Origin: a virus
Virus record (IMG/VR): IMGVR_UViG_3300031576_000014
Location: 30,583-94,582 of that record
DNA: 64,000 bases
Strand: one strand, 5' to 3'
Positions 2,597-59,015 of the stretch are shown piece after piece. Under the pieces are notes generated by a model. It was given only the letters and a program-made list of their open reading frames with translations. It was not told the origin of the DNA and did not search any database. The position numbers and the translations under genes are program-made. The first letter of the stretch is position 1. Each line of letters opens with the position of its first letter.

Positions 2597-3006
2597 CAGA
2601 GACCGGCCTCGTCCATGATCGCCTCGCACGCCTCGCGCAGCGCCTTCTTGTCCTCGAACGAGCACGCCTCGACGACCTCGAGCACGACGTCCCGCGCCCT
2701 TGCCCGCTTCTTCCGGACGCGCGCGAGCGCCTCGTCGGGAAGCCTCGCCCGCCTCCGGCGCAGAACCCGTATCTCCCCCTCCGCGCCCATCTTCCGGGCC
2801 CACGCCCGCACGGCCTCGACCTGCTCGTCCGCGACGTCCGGGGGCGCGCGCACACGCACGAGCGCGCCCGCCGTCATCTGGTCGAACGCCATGTCTCCGT
2901 CCCAGACCGGACTGTCCTCGCCGATCGTCACGAGCCGCCTCGTCTCGACAGGGAAGAACTCCGTCTTCGGGACGAGCCGGATCGCGGGGTTTCTCCGGCG
3001 CGTCAA
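2596..3006 (-). CDS. hypothetical protein, possibly the separated C-terminal domain of SbcD/Mre11
   Basis: Coupled between the SbcD nuclease domain and SbcC; alpha/beta pattern (ALVRVRAP) followed by a helical tail. Confidence 0.55.
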   Translation of the reverse strand: MTRRRNPAIRLVPKTEFFPVETRRLVTIGEDSPVWDGDMAFDQMTAGALVRVRAPPDVADEQVEAVRAWARKMGAEGEIRVLRRRRARLPDEALARVRKKRARARDVVLEVVEACSFEDKKALREACEAIMDEAGL

Positions 3007-3722
3007 GCGACCTCGGAGACGATGAAGCCCGGATCGTTCCCTTCCTCCGCGAACGTCAACCGCACGAGGGAGCCCGGGATCTCGATTCCGTCCGGCGTCG
3101 TCTGCCGGCGGTGGTAGTGCCCGTTGATCATGAGACGCGCCTTGCCGCGAAGCTGCTCGACGGGAAAGAGCACCTCCCGCCCGCGGGGCATCTCCGCCGT
3201 CTCCTCCCCCGGGATCACGCCCGGGACGTGCAGGTGTCCTAAGACGACCAGCGGCAGCTCAGAGCTTTCCTTCACCGCGGCCGCCGCCGCCGCCGCCGGA
3301 TCGTAGGCGCAGGACCGCGCGGTGTACGGAAGCGTCAAGAACCTGGTGCTCCTCCAGACGAAGCTCTCCGCCTTCTCGAAAACCCCCGTCAGCCCTGCGC
3401 ACGAGCCCAGCGAGCAGAGCGGCTCGAGCGTGGTCCTTCCCCGCCCGTCCTCGATCACGTCGTGGTTGCCCGCCACCCAGAACGACATGATGCCCCGGGA
3501 CCGAAGCTCGCGCGCGGCGTCGAGCGCGAGCGCGACGCACCGGAAGACCGAGGACCCGGAGTCCGGGTCGCAGAGGTCGCCCGTCATCGCGTAGAGGTCG
3601 ACCTTCCTGTCGACCGCCTCCTTGACCGTCTGCTCGACGGCGCGCGCGACGTCGTCGAAGCGGTCGACGCCCCGCGTGCTCCAGTCGGCGTGCCAATCGC
3701 TACAGGTCAGGATGCGGAGCAC
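3003..3722 (-). CDS. SbcD/Mre11-like metallophosphoesterase nuclease
   Basis: Motifs SDWH, TGDL, GNHD, GHLH, GHYH. Confidence 0.9.
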   Translation of the reverse strand: MLRILTCSDWHADWSTRGVDRFDDVARAVEQTVKEAVDRKVDLYAMTGDLCDPDSGSSVFRCVALALDAARELRSRGIMSFWVAGNHDVIEDGRGRTTLEPLCSLGSCAGLTGVFEKAESFVWRSTRFLTLPYTARSCAYDPAAAAAAAVKESSELPLVVLGHLHVPGVIPGEETAEMPRGREVLFPVEQLRGKARLMINGHYHRRQTTPDGIEIPGSLVRLTFAEEGNDPGFIVSEVA

Positions 3723-3735
3723 GCGTTCCCCGGCT

Positions 3736-4071
3736 TCATGGTCTCATCCCGTGCCGCCCGAGCAGCTCGAGCAGCAGGAGCCTGTCCGTCGAGTTCCACG
3801 CGTTGCGGCGCAGCGACTCGACGGCGTGGCGCGGCGGCGTCTGCACGCGATCCCAATCGTCCAGCGTGAACCCCGGGGCCCGCGCGTACACCCTGACCGG
3901 CCCGTCCTGCTCGTCCCTGCGAACAGCGGTCAAAAGGTCGCCGCTCGACCGTTCCGAGAACACCTCGTAACGGAACCTCCGGTGGCCGCGCAACGCCTGG
4001 AAACTGTCGGGCCACTCGCGCCACCACGGCGAAACGGCCAACAGCCTGCAACCCTCGAACGCGCGGGTCAC
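3736..4071 (-). CDS. hypothetical protein
   Basis: Fills the operon gap; GTGA coupling to the upstream MTase. Confidence 0.55.
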   Translation of the reverse strand: MTRAFEGCRLLAVSPWWREWPDSFQALRGHRRFRYEVFSERSSGDLLTAVRRDEQDGPVRVYARAPGFTLDDWDRVQTPPRHAVESLRRNAWNSTDRLLLLELLGRHGMRP

Positions 4072-30546: not shown

Positions 30547-30968
30547 GTTGTCTTCCTTTTCCGGCTTGTCGGGATGCTCGCGAGCTTCGCTTTCAGCGTC
30601 GCGTTTTCGAGGAGCAGAGCTTCGTTCGTGCGCAGGAAATGCGCTCTTGCCTCGCCGGCTTTCTCCAGCTCGTCTTTCAACGTGTCGAGCTTCGTATGCA
30701 GCTCATCGTACTCTTTGCAGAGCTTCGACTTTTCCTCTTCACACTCCCCGCGCGCTTCATTGAGTTTCTCTTCCCAGCCATCGCCTTCGTCGGCCAGCTC
30801 TTGGATCGCGCTGAAGATCTCGTCCGTGGTTTCGCAGTCGATTCCCTCGCGTCCGCTAAGGTCGGCGCGGATCTCGTGGAGAAGCTCCAGGGCCGCGTGC
30901 AGCCGATCGCGCAAGTCTTCCTCGCGTGTGTCTTTGACGTCGCACCATGCTTGCGTGTACGCGCTCAT
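30543..30968 (-). CDS. acidic coiled-coil hypothetical protein
   Basis: MSAYTQAW start after GAGG; ATGA coupling. Confidence 0.6.
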   Translation of the reverse strand: MSAYTQAWCDVKDTREEDLRDRLHAALELLHEIRADLSGREGIDCETTDEIFSAIQELADEGDGWEEKLNEARGECEEEKSKLCKEYDELHTKLDTLKDELEKAGEARAHFLRTNEALLLENATLKAKLASIPTSRKRKTT

Positions 30969-52059: not shown

Positions 52060-52467
52060 GTGCGAAGACTGTCAACACCGAAAGGCGCCCCCGCCGACGC
52101 CGAAAGGGATGCTGCGAAGGTGGTTCGTCTGCCTCGACTGCGGCCTGAAGCAGTACATGGATCACGTCCCGATGCGCGAAGCGATCCCGATCCCAAAGTG
52201 CCAGCACGACCTCGACGCGCTCGACGAGTTCCTCCCGCGCCATCGCACGCCGTCTACCGCTACGTCGGCGAAGACGGGAAGCGCGGCCGCGTCCTCTCGC
52301 TCCACGCGACGATCGGGCAAGCGTTCGAGGCGTGCGACCTCGCGTCGGGCGCGTACATAGGCGAGGGTTCCGAATCCCGGGACGCGCGTGTCTCGCTCCG
52401 GACCGTGCGCGCCTACGTGCCCGGGTCCGTCGTCGGCGACGTCGTCGAGCTGCCCAGGCTCTATTAG
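52060..52467 (+). CDS. hypothetical protein
   Basis: GGAGG RBS before the GTG; fills the gap, convergent with the MuF gene. Confidence 0.4.
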   Translation: MRRLSTPKGAPADAERDAAKVVRLPRLRPEAVHGSRPDARSDPDPKVPARPRRARRVPPAPSHAVYRYVGEDGKRGRVLSLHATIGQAFEACDLASGAYIGEGSESRDARVSLRTVRAYVPGSVVGDVVELPRLY

Positions 52468-54371
52468 CGCCGCTTGCCGAACCGCGAGAGCGGGATGGTG
52501 GTCATGCGAGGACGCGGGGGAGGCGATCCCTTCCGCTTCTCCGCGCGCCACCGCGCCGCGATCTCGCCCGCGTCCCGCCAGCGGAACTCCTTCGGGATCG
52601 GCCAGGCGACGCGGTGCGGGACGACGATCTCGCGGTCGTTCGGGCGCGCGGGCGGATGCTGCATCAGCCCGTACCAGGTCTCGAACGCCTGGGCGCTCGC
52701 GCGGATCTGCCCGTGAACCGCGTAGGAGTCAGAGTTGCCCGTATAGATGCCTTCTGCGGTGAAGTAACCCTCGGACGTTGAAAGGTCGAAGACATGCCCG
52801 GAAATCGAAGTGGGTTGAACGTCAACGAGGCGATCGAGTTGTACCGAACCGGAATGACGTTGTCCGAGGTGGCGGGCACTCTCGACATTCATCGCCGATA
52901 TGTTGCCGAGGAGATCGCGGCACGCGGCGAAACTCGATCGAACGCCGAAGCTCGACGACGACAGTTCGCCAATCGCGAGAACCATCCTCGCTATCGCGAA
53001 GGCATGCCTATCAACCACATCGCCCATTCGTACATGAAAGGCGAAGCGATCAAACGCATAGGCAAGCGCCTCGGGGTCTCCCAGACGCTCGTCACTCGGT
53101 GCCTGCTCGATGCAGGGATCACACCACGCTCTGGTTCTGAAACAAACCATGTCCGCGCACGTTCGCGGGCTGATGAGCCTGCCGCATTCGACACAAAAAT
53201 GAACATCATCGGTTGGGGCGAGGACCTGCTTCGCGGCTGGCTCAGTGAGCGCGGCGAATCTCCCCAACCGCAGCTCGCCGTGGGAACGAAGAACATCGAT
53301 GTCGCGATTCGACCCATCGCCGTGGAAGTCTTGATCTCGTCCTCGTCGCCGCTCACGGTTTCCCGTTGCAAGCAGCGACTCGAATACCTCGCCGATCGTG
53401 GGTGGACGACCTGTTACGTGCTCATCTCTCGGCGCACTCGTACGCTCATGCCCACCGTCGCAGACCAGCTCATCGCCAAGGCGAAGTTTGCCCGCAGCGA
53501 CCCATCCGCGCCTCGTGAGCATTGGGTGATTCGGGGTTGTGGTGAGATCGCGGCCCGCTTCGGTGACGAAACGCGCCGCCGGTCCCTCGTATGGCCGTCG
53601 AAAGACTGCCCTCACCACCGCCCCGGCAACCCTCGTCGAACCGACTAAACACGCTGTTCTGTCGTCGAACGTCGCGACGAGGATCTTGCACACGTCGCCG
53701 AGCTGCTGGTGCGCCTCCTTCGTCGCCTCGTAGTTGGCGCGGTTCGCTGATCCCATTATTTCTGTGCGCACGATGCGCTCGGCCCAGCTCGCCGGCGCCT
53801 GCTGGAGGAACGGGCTCCTGTCGACGATCGAGGTGCGCATCGAGTCCCACGACCGGCGCGAGACGAGCCCGAGCTGAAGCTCCTTCTCGAAGTGCTCGAC
53901 CACTCCCGCCCCGTAGCGCGCAAGCACGCCCTCGCCGCGCTTGCCCTTCTCGCCGACGAGGCTCCTGAGGATCGACCCCCGGCTCCCGTCGAGCGCTGCC
54001 TCGAGCATGCGCGCCTCGTCGAGCGCGAGCGGCTGCGCGCCGACTCCGAGGAACTCCCTGTCCCGCGCCGCCAGGTAGCGCGCCGTCGACTCCGCCGCCT
54101 TCTCCGCCGCCGCCGCACCGACGTCGAGGGCGGTCCCGCGCAGCCCGGTGTTGAGCTGAAAGACCACTTCCCGGACCTGCGCAAGCGTCGCCCGGAGCTG
54201 CGCCGCCGTGAAGCTCGCATCCCCCGGCCCCGCGACCGCCCGCGCCAGGCGGCTCTCCAGGTCGCGCTCCGCTCGCTCGAGCAGCTTGCGCGTCCTCCCT
54301 ACGCCCGTCTGCTCCGCGAACACGTGCGCCGCCCGCTTGTCCGCGGCGAGCACCTCGCGTGCGGTCTTCAC
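52464..54371 (-). CDS. MuF/SPP1 gp7-like head morphogenesis protein, intein-containing
   Basis: WAERIVRTE, ATFDDRTA|intein|SDSYAVHGQ, HPPARPNDRE; follows the portal. Confidence 0.88.
   Translation of the reverse strand: MKTAREVLAADKRAAHVFAEQTGVGRTRKLLERAERDLESRLARAVAGPGDASFTAAQLRATLAQVREVVFQLNTGLRGTALDVGAAAAEKAAESTARYLAARDREFLGVGAQPLALDEARMLEAALDGSRGSILRSLVGEKGKRGEGVLARYGAGVVEHFEKELQLGLVSRRSWDSMRTSIVDRSPFLQQAPASWAERIVRTEIMGSANRANYEATKEAHQQLGDVCKILVATFDDRTACLVGSTRVAGAVVRAVFRRPYEGPAARFVTEAGRDLTTTPNHPMLTRRGWVAAGKLRLGDELVCDGGHERTSAPRDEHVTGRPPTIGEVFESLLATGNRERRRGRDQDFHGDGSNRDIDVLRSHGELRLGRFAALTEPAAKQVLAPTDDVHFCVECGRLISPRTCADMVCFRTRAWCDPCIEQAPSDERLGDPEALAYAFDRFAFHVRMGDVVDRHAFAIARMVLAIGELSSSSFGVRSSFAACRDLLGNISAMNVESARHLGQRHSGSVQLDRLVDVQPTSISGHVFDLSTSEGYFTAEGIYTGNSDSYAVHGQIRASAQAFETWYGLMQHPPARPNDREIVVPHRVAWPIPKEFRWRDAGEIAARWRAEKRKGSPPPRPRMTTIPLSRFGKRR
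52734..53651 (-). mobile_element. intein (306 aa) in the MuF-like protein
   Basis: CLVGSTRV (block A), TTTPNHPML..RGW (block B), GHVFDLST (block F), ends YTGN followed by Ser+1; no LAGLIDADG motifs. Confidence 0.9.
52794..53648 (+). CDS. antisense-encoded HTH + Vsr/DUF559-like PD-(D/E)XK endonuclease inside the intein
   Basis: Two HTH-like repeats; GEDLLRGWL..RG....Q..VG..NIDVAI..IAVEV...RLEYLADRGW; AAAGG RBS; normal amino-acid composition. Confidence 0.8.
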   Translation: MPGNRSGLNVNEAIELYRTGMTLSEVAGTLDIHRRYVAEEIAARGETRSNAEARRRQFANRENHPRYREGMPINHIAHSYMKGEAIKRIGKRLGVSQTLVTRCLLDAGITPRSGSETNHVRARSRADEPAAFDTKMNIIGWGEDLLRGWLSERGESPQPQLAVGTKNIDVAIRPIAVEVLISSSSPLTVSRCKQRLEYLADRGWTTCYVLISRRTRTLMPTVADQLIAKAKFARSDPSAPREHWVIRGCGEIAARFGDETRRRSLVWPSKDCPHHRPGNPRRTD

Positions 54372-56302
54372 GGCCCGGCCGCCCCTTCGTCTCCGCCATC
54401 GTCGCCCGGGAGAAAGGGCGGCTGCGGCTTGCCGAACGGCGGCTTGCCGAACGGTTTGCCCCCGCCCGGCTGCTCATCATCCTTTTCGACCTTGCCGGCC
54501 GCAGCCTCCTGCTGCTGCTGGAACATCGCCTGCTCCTTCGCCTTGTCCTTCGCCGTCTGCTTCTGGACGCGCTGCTGCTCCTGCGCAGGGTCCGCCCCGA
54601 ACGCTTCCGCCATCGCTTCCGTCGCCGTCTCGACGGAGAGGAACATCTTGCCCCCCGTCGCGAGCTGGAGCGTCGTCGCGATCTTGGCTTGGTCGTCCGG
54701 CGTCGGCGTGAAGTACGGCGGCCAGCGGAGATCGGTCTCGCCTCCCTCGCCCGGCTCCCGCTCAGTCTTCGTCGTGACCGTCTTCGGCTCGAGATCCTCC
54801 GGGGGCAGCTCCTCGGGCGGCGGTCGTGGTTGCAGAGGTTGTTCTTCCGGGAGACCGGTCTTCGGGTCAAGCGGAGGCTTCCCGGGCGGGACCGGCTGTT
54901 CCGATGGCAGCGGGGCGGGCTTCACCTCGATCTTCGGCGGAAGCGTCAGCTCCCACTTGCCGGGCTGCGTCTTCGGTACGCCAGCCTCGTCGAGCACCGG
55001 CTGCCCGAGGTCGTCCGTCACCTGGACCATCGGCACCCGCTTCATCTTCGCGCGCGCGACGTCCGTCGGCTCGTCGACGAGGTTCCTGATCGCGTGCCCG
55101 TACTGCTCGCGGAGCACGTCCGCGCTCCCGAGCATCGGGGCGAACATCGCCTTGACCGCGACGGAGGAGACGCCCTGCGCGGCGACCTCGTGCGGGTCCG
55201 GGACGATGCACTGCGCGGCTTCGAGGATGCTCCTCCGGTGCGTCTCGATCAGCTTGATCCCCACCTCGATCGACGTGCCCTGAAGCTCCATGTACTCGGC
55301 GTCGCCGCCCTCGCCCGTGACGATCGAGTTGTCGGACCCCTTCTTGACGCCCGACATGGCGATCTGCTCCGGGTCCATCTTGAGCTTGAGCGTCGGGTCG
55401 AGGTTGAGGATCGCCCCGCGCGCGACGACGCTCGCGAGCACGTCGAGCGTGTCGAACTGGTCGAGGAGCCCTGCGTAGTCGCCGACGCCGTCGATCTCGT
55501 CGCTCGGGCGGTTCTGGATCCAGTGGAGGTGGCAGACGCCGTCGTCGTGCCGGACGCTCTTCTTCGCGTCGACGATCCAGACCGGCGCCGTGTCCGGGTT
55601 CGGCTTGATCTCCGCCGGCTCGAAGACGATGTCCGCGTCCGGCGTCCAGTCCCGCCGAAACCAGTAGTAGATCTTGTCGAACGCCTTGCCGTTCCATTGC
55701 GGAATCCAGAACGGGTAGACCTCCGTCGCCCAGCGCGGCTTCAGGCGCAGGCGGTCGGCCCACTCGTGCACGTGCACGTTCTTCGCGTTGTGGACCTCGT
55801 AGCGCGGCCGGCCCTTGTAGAAGCACCAGTCGACGCAGACCGTGCCCGTCGCGCCCCCGAGGCTCCGGGCCTCGATCATCTTCAGGGGCAGGTTGCCGAC
55901 GCGCGCGATCGTCTGCTTGAAATCCTCGTTCTTCGGGTCCCCCTCGACGCGGATCTGCGGGAAGCGGTTCTCGCCGAAGAGCAGGTTCGTGAACGAGTCG
56001 ACGATGATCTTGCCGAGCGGGTACGCGGCGCTCGGGCGGCGGTCGCGGAGCGGGACGTAGTACGGCGCCTGCTCCTGGGAAAGGAGAGGCATCGTCGTCC
56101 GCGGACTGTAGAGACGCCCGTCGAAGTCGTACATCTTGCCGTCGTGCTGCCGGCAACGAAAGTACGACTCGAGAAGGTCGAGCGCGCGGTAGCGGTCACC
56201 CTGGAGGATCGAGAGGGGCCGGAACCCGTCGAACGGGGACTGCTCCGTCCCGGTCATGTTCCCGAACGAGAGCGCGTTGCGCGGGTCGACGACCATGGTC
56301 AT
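54368..56302 (-). CDS. portal protein
   Basis: LESYFRCRQHD, IIVDSFTNLLFGE, SSVAVKAMFAPM, LSVETA; upstream of MuF. Confidence 0.8.
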   Translation of the reverse strand: MTMVVDPRNALSFGNMTGTEQSPFDGFRPLSILQGDRYRALDLLESYFRCRQHDGKMYDFDGRLYSPRTTMPLLSQEQAPYYVPLRDRRPSAAYPLGKIIVDSFTNLLFGENRFPQIRVEGDPKNEDFKQTIARVGNLPLKMIEARSLGGATGTVCVDWCFYKGRPRYEVHNAKNVHVHEWADRLRLKPRWATEVYPFWIPQWNGKAFDKIYYWFRRDWTPDADIVFEPAEIKPNPDTAPVWIVDAKKSVRHDDGVCHLHWIQNRPSDEIDGVGDYAGLLDQFDTLDVLASVVARGAILNLDPTLKLKMDPEQIAMSGVKKGSDNSIVTGEGGDAEYMELQGTSIEVGIKLIETHRRSILEAAQCIVPDPHEVAAQGVSSVAVKAMFAPMLGSADVLREQYGHAIRNLVDEPTDVARAKMKRVPMVQVTDDLGQPVLDEAGVPKTQPGKWELTLPPKIEVKPAPLPSEQPVPPGKPPLDPKTGLPEEQPLQPRPPPEELPPEDLEPKTVTTKTEREPGEGGETDLRWPPYFTPTPDDQAKIATTLQLATGGKMFLSVETATEAMAEAFGADPAQEQQRVQKQTAKDKAKEQAMFQQQQEAAAGKVEKDDEQPGGGKPFGKPPFGKPQPPFLPGDDGGDEGAAGP

Positions 56303-56305
56303 CGA

Positions 56306-56551
56306 TCAGCCGGCCTTCTTGCGCGCGCGCGCGACGCGGTCTGCGCGGCTTCCCCGCAGCAGGACGGGCGGGTCCGGGCGCTTTGGCTCTTCGCGGAACT
56401 CCTGCCGGACAGGCATCCCGCGCCCGCGCTCCGTGACACCTACGAAGTCGACCGCTTCCTCCGGCTCCGGTTTCCTTTCCCCGCGCACGCGCTCGCCGAG
56501 GCGGATCAAGAGATCACCGGCGAGCGATCGGACGTGGTCGCGGAGCCGCAT
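56306..56551 (-). CDS. hypothetical protein
   Basis: Directly after a leaderless-type promoter and upstream of the portal. Confidence 0.55.
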   Translation of the reverse strand: MRLRDHVRSLAGDLLIRLGERVRGERKPEPEEAVDFVGVTERGRGMPVRQEFREEPKRPDPPVLLRGSRADRVARARKKAG

Positions 56552-56557
56552 GCGGAC

Positions 56558-56586
56558 ACTCTACAGGCGCCGCGGGCGACGGTCAC
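56558..56586 (-). promoter_or_regulatory. sigma70-like promoter GTGACC-17-TAGAGT, leaderless
   Basis: The -10 box lies 6 nt before ATG 56551. Confidence 0.55.
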
Positions 56587-56604
56587 GGACCGCGGACGCG
56601 CGCG

Positions 56605-56907
56605 TCACGCGTTCTTCTTCGCCTTCTTCGTCTTCGCCGGAACCTGCTCGTCGTCCGCCGCCGCATCGATCGGCGATGGCGCCGACCCCGCACAGACCGG
56701 GGAGGAGTCGATCGGGGCTTCCCAAGGGAGCCCGGTCTCCGGATCTCCCCCGGCGAAGACGCGCGCGCCGCAACACTTCGTGAGCGCGAGGTCCGAGGAC
56801 CTCACCCGCTGGGAAGTCGTGAAGGTTTCGAGCTGCTCCGCCGTCGGCGGCGTTTGCGTCTCCGCCAGCTGGTGCCACTTGTCTCCGTGCTTCGCCCAAC
56901 CGCTCAT
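56605..56907 (-). CDS. hypothetical protein
   Basis: GGAGG RBS. Confidence 0.55.
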   Translation of the reverse strand: MSGWAKHGDKWHQLAETQTPPTAEQLETFTTSQRVRSSDLALTKCCGARVFAGGDPETGLPWEAPIDSSPVCAGSAPSPIDAAADDEQVPAKTKKAKKNA

Positions 56908-56917
56908 CCTGTCCTCC

Positions 56918-57304
56918 CTACGGAGCCGCTTCGATTGTGAAGAAGCCCGTCGAATCGCCGCGGGCCCAGAAGAAGTCCTGGTATTTGTCCGCTTTGCAGA
57001 GAAAGACCTTCACCTGAGACCCGAACTGGGGGCTCGTGAAATATCCTGCGACGAACCACTTCTGAGCCTGCTGCGCGCTGGCTGTCCGCTGAACGATGAT
57101 CGCGAATGTGCCTGTTGCGGGTTTGCCTGCCGGATCGCTTGCCCCGACCGTGAGCAGCTGAGATGCGTCCGTGTCCGAGAGATGATGCACCGCACCTTCC
57201 GGAGTGATGTCGCGCGCATCCCATCCGGCCGCAGCGTTTCCGGCGAAGACGGTGGCGATCTGTCCGGAGCCGAACGCGAGAAACGATCCGATTGCAACAG
57301 TCAT
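56918..57304 (-). CDS. hypothetical protein
   Basis: GGAGGA RBS; beta-rich; lower GC. Confidence 0.6.
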   Translation of the reverse strand: MTVAIGSFLAFGSGQIATVFAGNAAAGWDARDITPEGAVHHLSDTDASQLLTVGASDPAGKPATGTFAIIVQRTASAQQAQKWFVAGYFTSPQFGSQVKVFLCKADKYQDFFWARGDSTGFFTIEAAP

Positions 57305-57317
57305 GATGATCCTCCTC

Positions 57318-59015
57318 CTACACGAGCGTGGTGCGAGCCTTGTAGATGCGAGCGTTGTGCGTCATGTCGTGAGCGTTGTTCGCGTGCCCGCCAGCAGCGA
57401 TCGTGCCCGTGATGTTCGTCCAAGTCAGCGTGCGCGCGGCAGGAGCGACCGACCACGTGCCCGTCGCCGTGTCGAACGCCTCGACAGAGGAGCGCCCGCC
57501 AAGCATCGCGTTCGGCACCGCCGCTGCGCCCGCGATGTAAAGCTTCGTGCCGTCCGCATACGTGAATGTTGCGTCGTCCTCGCCCTGAACACCGACTGTC
57601 GTCGCGACAGCCGAAGCTCCCCAAAGACCAGAGAGCCCGTACAGGAAGCTCTGCTGACGAGCCGCCCCGAAAGACGCGACGATGATCCCGCCTATCGAGA
57701 GCCCGAGGGCCGGCCAGTCCATGTGCCCGCTGTCCTCGGTGAGGAACGATCCTGTGCGGACGACGAGAACAAAAGTTCCCTGAAACAAAGTTCCCGTCAC
57801 GGCTGCTGCGCCGTCGCCCTCGGCGACGAACGCCGGTTGCGTTCCGGTTCCCCGCACAAGGCACGCGTCGAACTGGTTGGCGTACGTGTTGCCCGCGTTC
57901 TGGCAAGAGAATTGGAAGCCAGTCGTCGAGGATGGCTCAATGTTCGTCGCGGTGAAGAACGCCCACGTGTTTGCCGTTCCCTTCCCCTCTGCCGAGAGGA
58001 TCAGCCTTCCGCCGCCCGCGTCTTTGTCGATCCAACGGCAGTTGGCGAAGACCAGCGAACATGCGGAGTGCAAGAGCTGGGACTCGGAGAAGGCCCCGCG
58101 TCCGAGGATCGACAGGTCTAGATCTTCGAACTGCACGGTAGGCTGGTTCGGGTAGAGGCCGCCGTTCGCCCGGACACGGATGAAGTCGACGTACAACACG
58201 CCCGGCGCGGTGAGGATCTCGTACGGGTCGGGCGCGGCCGGGGTCACGTACGTGTTGGCGAGCACGGGGAAGTTCGGGATGACCGGCTCGCTGACGCGGA
58301 TCGTCGTGGCGCCCGGGACCGTCGCGACGTAAAAGCGCGCGCCCGTGCGCGCGCCCGACGTGATGCGCACGCGCAGACCGAGATCGGTCGCGTCGAAGGC
58401 GGCGCCGGCGTCCGTCAGAAGCCACGGCGTGTTCGTCGAACGCACGCGCACCGTGACCGCCGAGAGGGCTCCAGTTTTCTTCTGGGTCATCGCGGGCCCG
58501 ATGATCCGGACCTTGACCTGCGTCGTCGGCACCCGCTGCTCGATGAAAATGTCTGCTCGCACCGGGTCGGCCTTCGGCGGAAGCGAGATGAACGCGACGA
58601 CCGTGCTCGCCGTGATCGGCTGCGCGCCGAGCCGGTAGAAAAGCTCCGCGTCCGTGAGCAGCGGCGTCCCGGCGGTCAGCCCGTCGTTGAGGTCGCTCGC
58701 GAGCTTCGTCGTGTTCAACCCGTCGACGAACCACGCCGGCTGCGCGCCCCAGCCCGGGTTCGGCGCGAGCTGGTCGCGGAAGGCTATGTCAGCCCCGAGA
58801 TCGACTCCCGGGATCTGCCCCTTGCGCTCCTTCGCGAGGGCGATCGCCGCCGTCGCCGCCGCGTCGCCGTAGACGAGCGGGAGCAGCCGCGCGCCCGCCT
58901 GCCGGAGCCGGGCGACGTCGTCCGTGACCTCGTCGACCGTGCGGCCCTTCCGGAACGTCGCGGTCCCGGAGGGGGTCGCGATCGTCACGTCGTTCTCGAG
59001 CACGTACTTGCCCAT
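57318..59015 (-). CDS. large virion fibre/appendage-like protein
   Basis: WFVDG...ASDLNDGLTAGTPL motif typical of beta-helix fibre entries; lower-GC C-terminal half. Confidence 0.55.
   Translation of the reverse strand: MGKYVLENDVTIATPSGTATFRKGRTVDEVTDDVARLRQAGARLLPLVYGDAAATAAIALAKERKGQIPGVDLGADIAFRDQLAPNPGWGAQPAWFVDGLNTTKLASDLNDGLTAGTPLLTDAELFYRLGAQPITASTVVAFISLPPKADPVRADIFIEQRVPTTQVKVRIIGPAMTQKKTGALSAVTVRVRSTNTPWLLTDAGAAFDATDLGLRVRITSGARTGARFYVATVPGATTIRVSEPVIPNFPVLANTYVTPAAPDPYEILTAPGVLYVDFIRVRANGGLYPNQPTVQFEDLDLSILGRGAFSESQLLHSACSLVFANCRWIDKDAGGGRLILSAEGKGTANTWAFFTATNIEPSSTTGFQFSCQNAGNTYANQFDACLVRGTGTQPAFVAEGDGAAAVTGTLFQGTFVLVVRTGSFLTEDSGHMDWPALGLSIGGIIVASFGAARQQSFLYGLSGLWGASAVATTVGVQGEDDATFTYADGTKLYIAGAAAVPNAMLGGRSSVEAFDTATGTWSVAPAARTLTWTNITGTIAAGGHANNAHDMTHNARIYKARTTLV

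Follow-up and report, generated by a model that had tools for sequence, protein, structure and literature searches.

The window analysed in this study is a 64,000-nt stretch (positions 30,583 to 94,582) of the IMG/VR virus record IMGVR_UViG_3300031576_000014, a 94,582-bp record of an uncultured virus with a GC content of 68%. In this window, a phage head gene on the minus strand, probably MuF-like, is interrupted by an intein, and a second open reading frame (ORF) lies within the intein on the plus strand. The results indicated that this is very probably a mobile intein with its homing-endonuclease gene encoded apart from it, as an ORF of the other strand in frame -1. Translation of the host gene from the minus strand would continue straight through the intein, and the HINT domain (codons 1-66 and 270-306, perhaps together with some of 79-160) would excise itself and restore the head protein, about 100 codons between the HINT parts needing only to remain stop-free. 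On the plus strand, the same DNA would encode a 284-aa protein with two helix-turn-helix (HTH) modules and a Vsr-like nuclease, an arrangement typical of modular homing endonucleases; this protein would cut intein-less MuF alleles at co-infection, and repair would copy the element in. We infer that the antisense gene is transcribed and translated, that its product cleaves the empty site and that the intein splices. The principal features are the following:

52794-53648, plus strand: antisense gene of 284 aa, predicted homing endonuclease, wholly inside the intein
52794-52796, plus strand: ATG of the antisense gene, complement of the block-F His286 codon CAT
53646-53648, plus strand: TAA of the antisense gene, complement of the intein Leu2 codon TTA
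52782-52785, plus strand: putative Shine-Dalgarno-like AAGG, 12 nt before the ATG
52734-53651, minus strand: intein of 306 codons interrupting the MuF-like head gene (Pfam Intein_splicing and TIGR01445 matches)

The antisense ORF stands in exact codon register with the intein, plus-strand residue i pairing with intein codon 287-i, and both its start and its stop codon coincide with conserved codons of the intein. His286 was CAT in 29 of 34 homologues, and Leu2 was CTA or TTA in 29 of 34; these two are the sole Leu codons that are mirrored as stops on the other strand. An in-frame TGA (52779-52781) lies upstream of the plus-strand ATG, and a GAGG, AAGG or GGAG tetramer was found at -12/-13 in 20 of 33 homologues, which is only suggestive of a Shine-Dalgarno motif ahead of the antisense start. 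The terminator count was at the level of shuffled sequence.

On the window sequence alone, the antisense frame is not beyond chance, and its significance comes from the relatives. Given the codon usage of the host gene, an open mirror frame in the window copy has a p of ~0.25, and many long shadow ORFs occur in this 68% GC window. One of them, a 1017-aa shadow ORF at window positions 54359-57412 (plus strand), faces a 644-aa gene located upstream of the MuF gene, and indicates that long antisense ORFs in this genome are usually meaningless.

The relatives were gathered from viral and genome contigs in a first scan, which gave 82 loci, and in a second scan with more distant members, which gave 80 further loci; the first set comprises 83 loci and the second 80, 163 overall. 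In all 163 loci, which span a GC content of 33% to 71%, the frame opposite the nuclease ORF was open in exact register within a much longer intein-encoding gene, although the search pattern of the second scan was the mirror of intein block B and so is biased toward intein-embedded copies. The chance of an open mirror frame, calculated per locus from its own extein codon usage, went down to 5e-12, and the summed log10 chance over 43 loci was about -126, these loci not being independent. The strongest single case against chance is the relative L119 (match at 3001-3825), which has a GC content of 33% and both frames open, over 338 aa and 611 aa from stop to stop.

Two variants were also seen among the relatives. 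The intein of L014 (4758-5837) has 360 codons compared with the usual ~305, and both frames are open through the extra ~55 codons. Further, the host ORFs of L042 and L043 (887 and 1005 aa) each gave two separate intein-like matches, apparently two inteins, which may sit at two recurrent MuF sites (..RTE/..T and ..N/..CRC; here and below, slashes mark intein junctions).

The selection on the two frames was assayed by a codon-position test on 34 non-redundant inteins, which were aligned twice, with each frame as the guide once. At the intein ends (codons 1-60 and 281-306), the nucleotide identity in the intein frame was higher at position 1 than at position 3, e.g., 0.66 vs. 0.38, while in codons 61-280 the order of positions was reversed and the amino acid identity was higher in the plus-strand frame, e.g., 0.37 vs. 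0.15. The pattern was identical under either guide frame. Within the intein-frame linker (codons 165-265), the amino acid identity was 0.14-0.24 in the intein frame vs. 0.22-0.41 in the plus-strand frame; in codons 151-160 the intein frame is the selected one, with C153 and C156 nearly invariant. Synonymous codons varied freely both at the conserved plus-strand residues of the HTH region (top-codon share 0.5) and at the conserved residues of intein blocks A, F and G (0.57-0.60), the His286 CAT excepted. The codon-position and synonymous-codon patterns indicate that the ends evolve as an intein and the centre as the antisense protein.

Constraint on both frames at once was seen in two short stretches:

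53313-53327, both strands: plus-strand P174-I-A-V-E178 (catalytic strand) opposite intein F109-H-G-D-G113
53514-53537, both strands: intein block B T39-P-N-H-P...T46 opposite plus-strand R241...G248 (HWVIRG)

In the former, the plus-strand A176, V177 and E178 were encoded by GCC, GTG and GAA in 34 of 34 sequences and mirror the invariant intein residues F109-H110-G111; the synonymous sites of these codons would be free under either frame alone. In the latter, which mirrors plus-strand H243...G248, the codon shares were 1.0 for ACC (T39), 0.94 for AAT (N41), 1.0 for CAC (H42) and 0.94 for ACG (T46), and the plus-strand codons GTG, ATT and GGT opposite block B each had a share of 1.0.

The domains of the antisense protein were assigned from Pfam, profile searches and an AlphaFold2 (AF2) model, and from structural alignment of that model with VIA-align:

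52821-53111, plus strand: two HTH DNA-binding modules (residues ~10-43 and ~73-106; Pfam, profile, AF2)
53214-53588, plus strand: Vsr-like, PD-(D/E)xK-type nuclease domain (residues ~141-265; AF2, VIA-align)

Pfam HTH_23 matched the protein with an E of 6.5e-6, above the curated cut-off, and HTH_38 with 3.3e-4, and the family profile matched the tandem-HTH protein Cbp1 (2lvs, E 1.4e-5) as well as resolvase and transposase HTHs. The AF2 model, built with eight sequences as input, had an overall predicted local distance difference test score (pLDDT) of 78.6, the HTH helices reaching 82-88 and the nuclease core, with the order alpha-beta-beta-beta-alpha-beta, 78-94; the linker of residues 125-140 was of low confidence. 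VIA-align placed Vsr at the top (1cw0, Z 9.7, root-mean-square deviation (rmsd) 5.8 over 123 residues); behind it came 3hrl, which is DUF559-like (Z 8.7, rmsd 2.0 over 87), and 3r3p, the homing endonuclease I-Bth0305I (Z 8.5, rmsd 3.3 over 91). Foldseek of the model against PDB had no hits at E <= 0.001, a phmmer search of PDB sequences with the single protein yielded no meaningful match, and the family profile against PDB sequences matched the HTH half only. The invariant residues of the nuclease domain are E143, Q160, N167, D169, E178, R195, W204, H243 and R247.

The intein frame was modelled as well, and its parts are given below:

53649-53651, minus strand: intein Cys1 (TGT)
53526-53537, minus strand: intein block B, T39-P-N-H42
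52734-52736, minus strand: intein terminal Asn306, followed by Ser+1
53454-53651, minus strand: N-terminal splicing region, intein codons 1-66 (blocks A, B and N4; pLDDT 91-96)
52734-52844, minus strand: C-terminal splicing region, intein codons 270-306 (blocks F and G; pLDDT 90-96)
52857-53159, minus strand: intein-frame linker, codons 165-265 (pLDDT 27-46), which needs to be stop-free and shows neither amino-acid constraint nor a confident fold
53184-53195, minus strand: conserved CxxC, intein codons 153-156, opposite the low-confidence linker of the plus-strand protein

The residues of a class 1 intein are complete (Cys1, T39-P-N-H42, Asn306 and Ser+1), and all were kept in an alignment of 33 sequences. 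The AF2 model of the intein frame matched almost only the HINT domains of inteins and Hedgehog proteins, with 2imz as the best match (Z 11.4, rmsd 2.0 over 111). Its pLDDT was >90 for residues 1-66 and 270-306, 70-91 for 79-160 and <50 for 165-265. The segment 79-160 holds the intein-frame FHGDG, which is invariant (codons 109-113), and the CxxC, opposite the nuclease core; this segment may form a small subdomain, perhaps one that binds metal, sharing its DNA with the core of the antisense nuclease.

A first-pass annotation, made from the letters of the window alone, had described the intein and the antisense ORF with the same anatomy, coordinates and exact register, and had called two HTH modules and a Vsr/DUF559-like nuclease, in agreement with the Pfam HTH_23 match, the AF2 model and the VIA-align matches to 1cw0, 3hrl and 3r3p. 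Its reading of the whole as a two-strand selfish element is supported by purifying selection, which in the centre acts on the antisense frame and at either end on the intein frame. The modelling of both frames that it had suggested returned HTH modules with a Vsr-like nuclease for one strand and HINT for the other, and the homologue scan it had suggested for a conserved antisense ORF found the mirror frame open throughout the 163 loci. Its view of the ~200-aa centre of the intein as shadow text holds for codons ~161-270 only, and fails for codons ~79-160 with their conserved FHGDG and CxxC.

It is conceivable, at somewhat less than even chances, that the nuclease and the intein form an obligate pair co-evolved codon by codon, the nuclease gene then being more than a guest housed in a junk linker. 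This tentative reading is drawn because AVE/FHGDG and HWVIRG/TPNHP are co-encoded, the start and stop codons are mirrored, and all 163 loci are antisense to a MuF intein. If the pair did co-evolve, the segment 79-160 could be a functional subdomain, amounting to true two-strand double coding of folded domains, of which the 2025 preprint (10.1101/2025.01.02.630785) gives no description.

The family of the antisense protein was surveyed by several searches. A protein search gave seven homologues of 281-291 aa with 38-55% identity to the plus-strand protein, and the homologues overall were of 277-291 aa with 36-55% identity. A tblastn search with the antisense ORF matched the Gordonia phages Malisha, Angelicage, Vivi2, Affeca and Fosterous (E 6e-9 to 6e-24), at 27-34% identity between the window ORF and these Gordonia members; in Angelicage, the MuF gene is the sole annotation over the region matching the window ORF. 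IMG/VR contributed 164 relatives in the first scan and 95 in the second, and a profile search gave 608 clusters at 50% identity (E <= 1e-30), nearly all matches with a complete C-terminus carrying the mirror of block B. Members were also present in phages of Salmonella, Pseudomonas, Klebsiella, Vibrio and Aggregatibacter, and the nuclease family is widespread outside actinophages. Every family member examined (163 loci) was antisense to a MuF intein. An intein-less allele of the window phage was not found, and a search of viral contigs with the N-extein gave no close relatives.

The host gene and its parts are as follows:

52464-54371, minus strand: host gene, 635-aa precursor of a probable MuF-like head-morphogenesis or minor capsid protein (ORF listing; PHROG)
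53652-54371, minus strand: N-extein of the host gene
52467-52733, minus strand: C-extein of the host gene
52464-52466, minus strand: stop codon of the host gene

The host protein matched 'head protein' and, weakly, 'head morphogenesis' in PHROG. The intein junctions were conserved across 45 non-redundant homologues with the pattern ..RTE/C...N/T.., and in two homologues with the same junction (L034 and L008) the intein splits Pfam Phage_Mu_F at profile position ~44-46. Further, the flanks of the window intein were 56% identical to those of the relative L003. The MuF identity of the window exteins is a probable assignment, based on the weak PHROG matches, the flank identity with L003 and the Phage_Mu_F homologues at the same junction. 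The large upstream genes at 54368-56302 and 57318-59015 (both minus strand) are at the positions expected for portal and terminase, and neither had a Pfam match at E <= 0.01; the window phage is distant from characterised phages. The intein stretch has a GC content of ~60% vs. 68% in the window, and the GC signal at third codon positions (GC3) is absent on either strand, compared with GC3 values of 0.83-0.97 in the flanking exteins; the low GC and weak GC3 fit a foreign origin and/or double coding.

Several results weigh against a functional homing-endonuclease gene in a mobile MuF intein. The Shine-Dalgarno-like motif is weak in the window copy, a scan for a sigma-70-like promoter of the antisense ORF found none, and the window exteins had no direct MuF match in Pfam. 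Recent transfer was not clearly indicated when intein and extein identities were compared: the mean was 43% for inteins vs. 32% for flanks, and the closest pair showed the reverse. As to the active site, the EDxHD residues of I-Bth0305I include E170, D196, H213 and D222 (Taylor et al. 2011, PMC3239194), and the spacing E143-26-D169 of two invariant family residues equals its E170-26-D196. At the places of H213 and D222, by spacing only, the family has P186 and R195, and the invariant H243 lies beyond the expected position of the EDxHD His. Of the canonical PD-(D/E)xK motif, the family has D169 and E178, but Leu or Trp stands in place of the Lys; the fold itself belongs to this superfamily. As the EDxHD His and second Asp are missing at their expected spacing and the (D/E)xK lysine is absent, catalysis by the antisense nuclease is not assured.

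These departures at the active site and the lack of a recent-transfer signal would also suit an antisense protein that is real but serves something other than homing, as a DNA-binding regulator or as a nuclease against competing phages or host DNA. We consider this unlikely, since all family members examined reside in inteins inserted at MuF sites, homing enzymes of the I-Bth0305I type likewise combine HTH modules with a Vsr-like nuclease, and patterns like those of horizontal gene transfer were reported for two VSR clusters (preprint 10.1101/2025.01.02.630785). Less likely still is that the nuclease works in the family and the window copy is a decaying remnant on its way to a mini-intein: such decay does occur, as the relative L002 (1116-2024) has two internal stops in the antisense ORF and a still open intein frame, a state of decay expected late in the homing cycle, but the window ORF is of full length, has its ATG and stop where the family has them and retains each of the 23 invariant residues. 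Hardly any weight is left for a non-coding plus-strand ORF that arose as a chance shadow frame of GC-rich DNA. The GC content of the window, its many long shadow ORFs and the single-copy p favour it; it was rejected on the grounds that the homologous frames are open down to 33% GC, that the centre is selected in the plus-strand frame, and that the protein has a Pfam HTH match above cut-off and a confidently modelled nuclease fold. A novel in-frame endonuclease in the intein was likewise rejected, the centre of the intein frame having a pLDDT <50 and no family match.

The mobile intein with an antisense homing-endonuclease gene was then compared with known systems. Canonical bifunctional inteins such as PI-SceI and PI-PfuI carry an in-frame LAGLIDADG or HNH domain. 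The window element resembles them in having the homing nuclease at the same topological place of the HINT domain and in the presumed life cycle, whereas its nuclease would be a separate polypeptide from the other strand and its in-frame insert is mostly unstructured. In the 'fractured genes' of Dassa et al. 2009, a free-standing Vsr-like (EDxHD) endonuclease gene reportedly lies between the halves of split inteins. A Vsr-like nuclease, N-terminal DNA-binding modules and a tie to phage inteins or introns are common to these genes, I-Bth0305I and the window element. By contrast, the window intein is unsplit, the host frame is open through it, here and in all relatives examined, the endonuclease gene is antisense, and its product does not have the EDxHD His and second Asp where they would be expected.

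The closest known elements were described in a 2025 preprint by Gosselin, Arsenault and Gogarten (bioRxiv 10.1101/2025.01.02.630785), which reports anti-sense VSR-like homing endonucleases ('VSR -1 ORF') from actinobacteriophages, in inteins that interrupt MuF-like minor capsid genes; the claim of novelty in the first-pass annotation, which knew of no description of this architecture, was thus wrong, and the window element adds a new and divergent example to a kind described not long ago. The table of the preprint lists Malisha, Vivi2, Angelicage, Affeca and Fosterous as 'minor capsid, MuF-like, VSR -1 ORF', and these Gordonia phage records are direct tblastn matches of the window ORF. Its structure prediction matched 1CW0 over residues 144-267, HHpred gave a match to 3R3P, and the antisense ORFs were typically outside the splicing domain (10.1101/2025.01.02.630785). 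The window element is homologous to these inteins and shares with them a full contiguous intein, an antisense ORF in frame -1, the nuclease fold and, probably, the type of host protein. It differs in residing in an uncultured 94.6-kb genome of 68% GC, in its 27-34% identity to the Gordonia members, in an ORF that extends from block F as far as intein codon 2, and in the two doubly constrained stretches. Anti-sense LAGLIDADG homing endonucleases in inteins (Ssp DnaX and others) go back to Gorbalenya 1998 and Gogarten et al. 2002, as cited in the preprint (10.1101/2025.01.02.630785); so far as that citation describes them, they likewise place the endonuclease on the strand opposite a contiguous intein, and differ in the nuclease superfamily and the host genes.

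The test of selection on two frames region by region, the start and stop codons inside conserved intein codons, the two doubly constrained stretches and the breadth of the family outside actinophages possibly go beyond the preprint, and the family analysis adds quantitative evidence for selection on both strands. The finding explains the recurrent 'large intein without an endonuclease' in phage head genes, where, as in Angelicage, standard annotation misses the second gene. It means that a selfish element can maintain two proteins on opposite strands, in the same codons, over long evolutionary distances.

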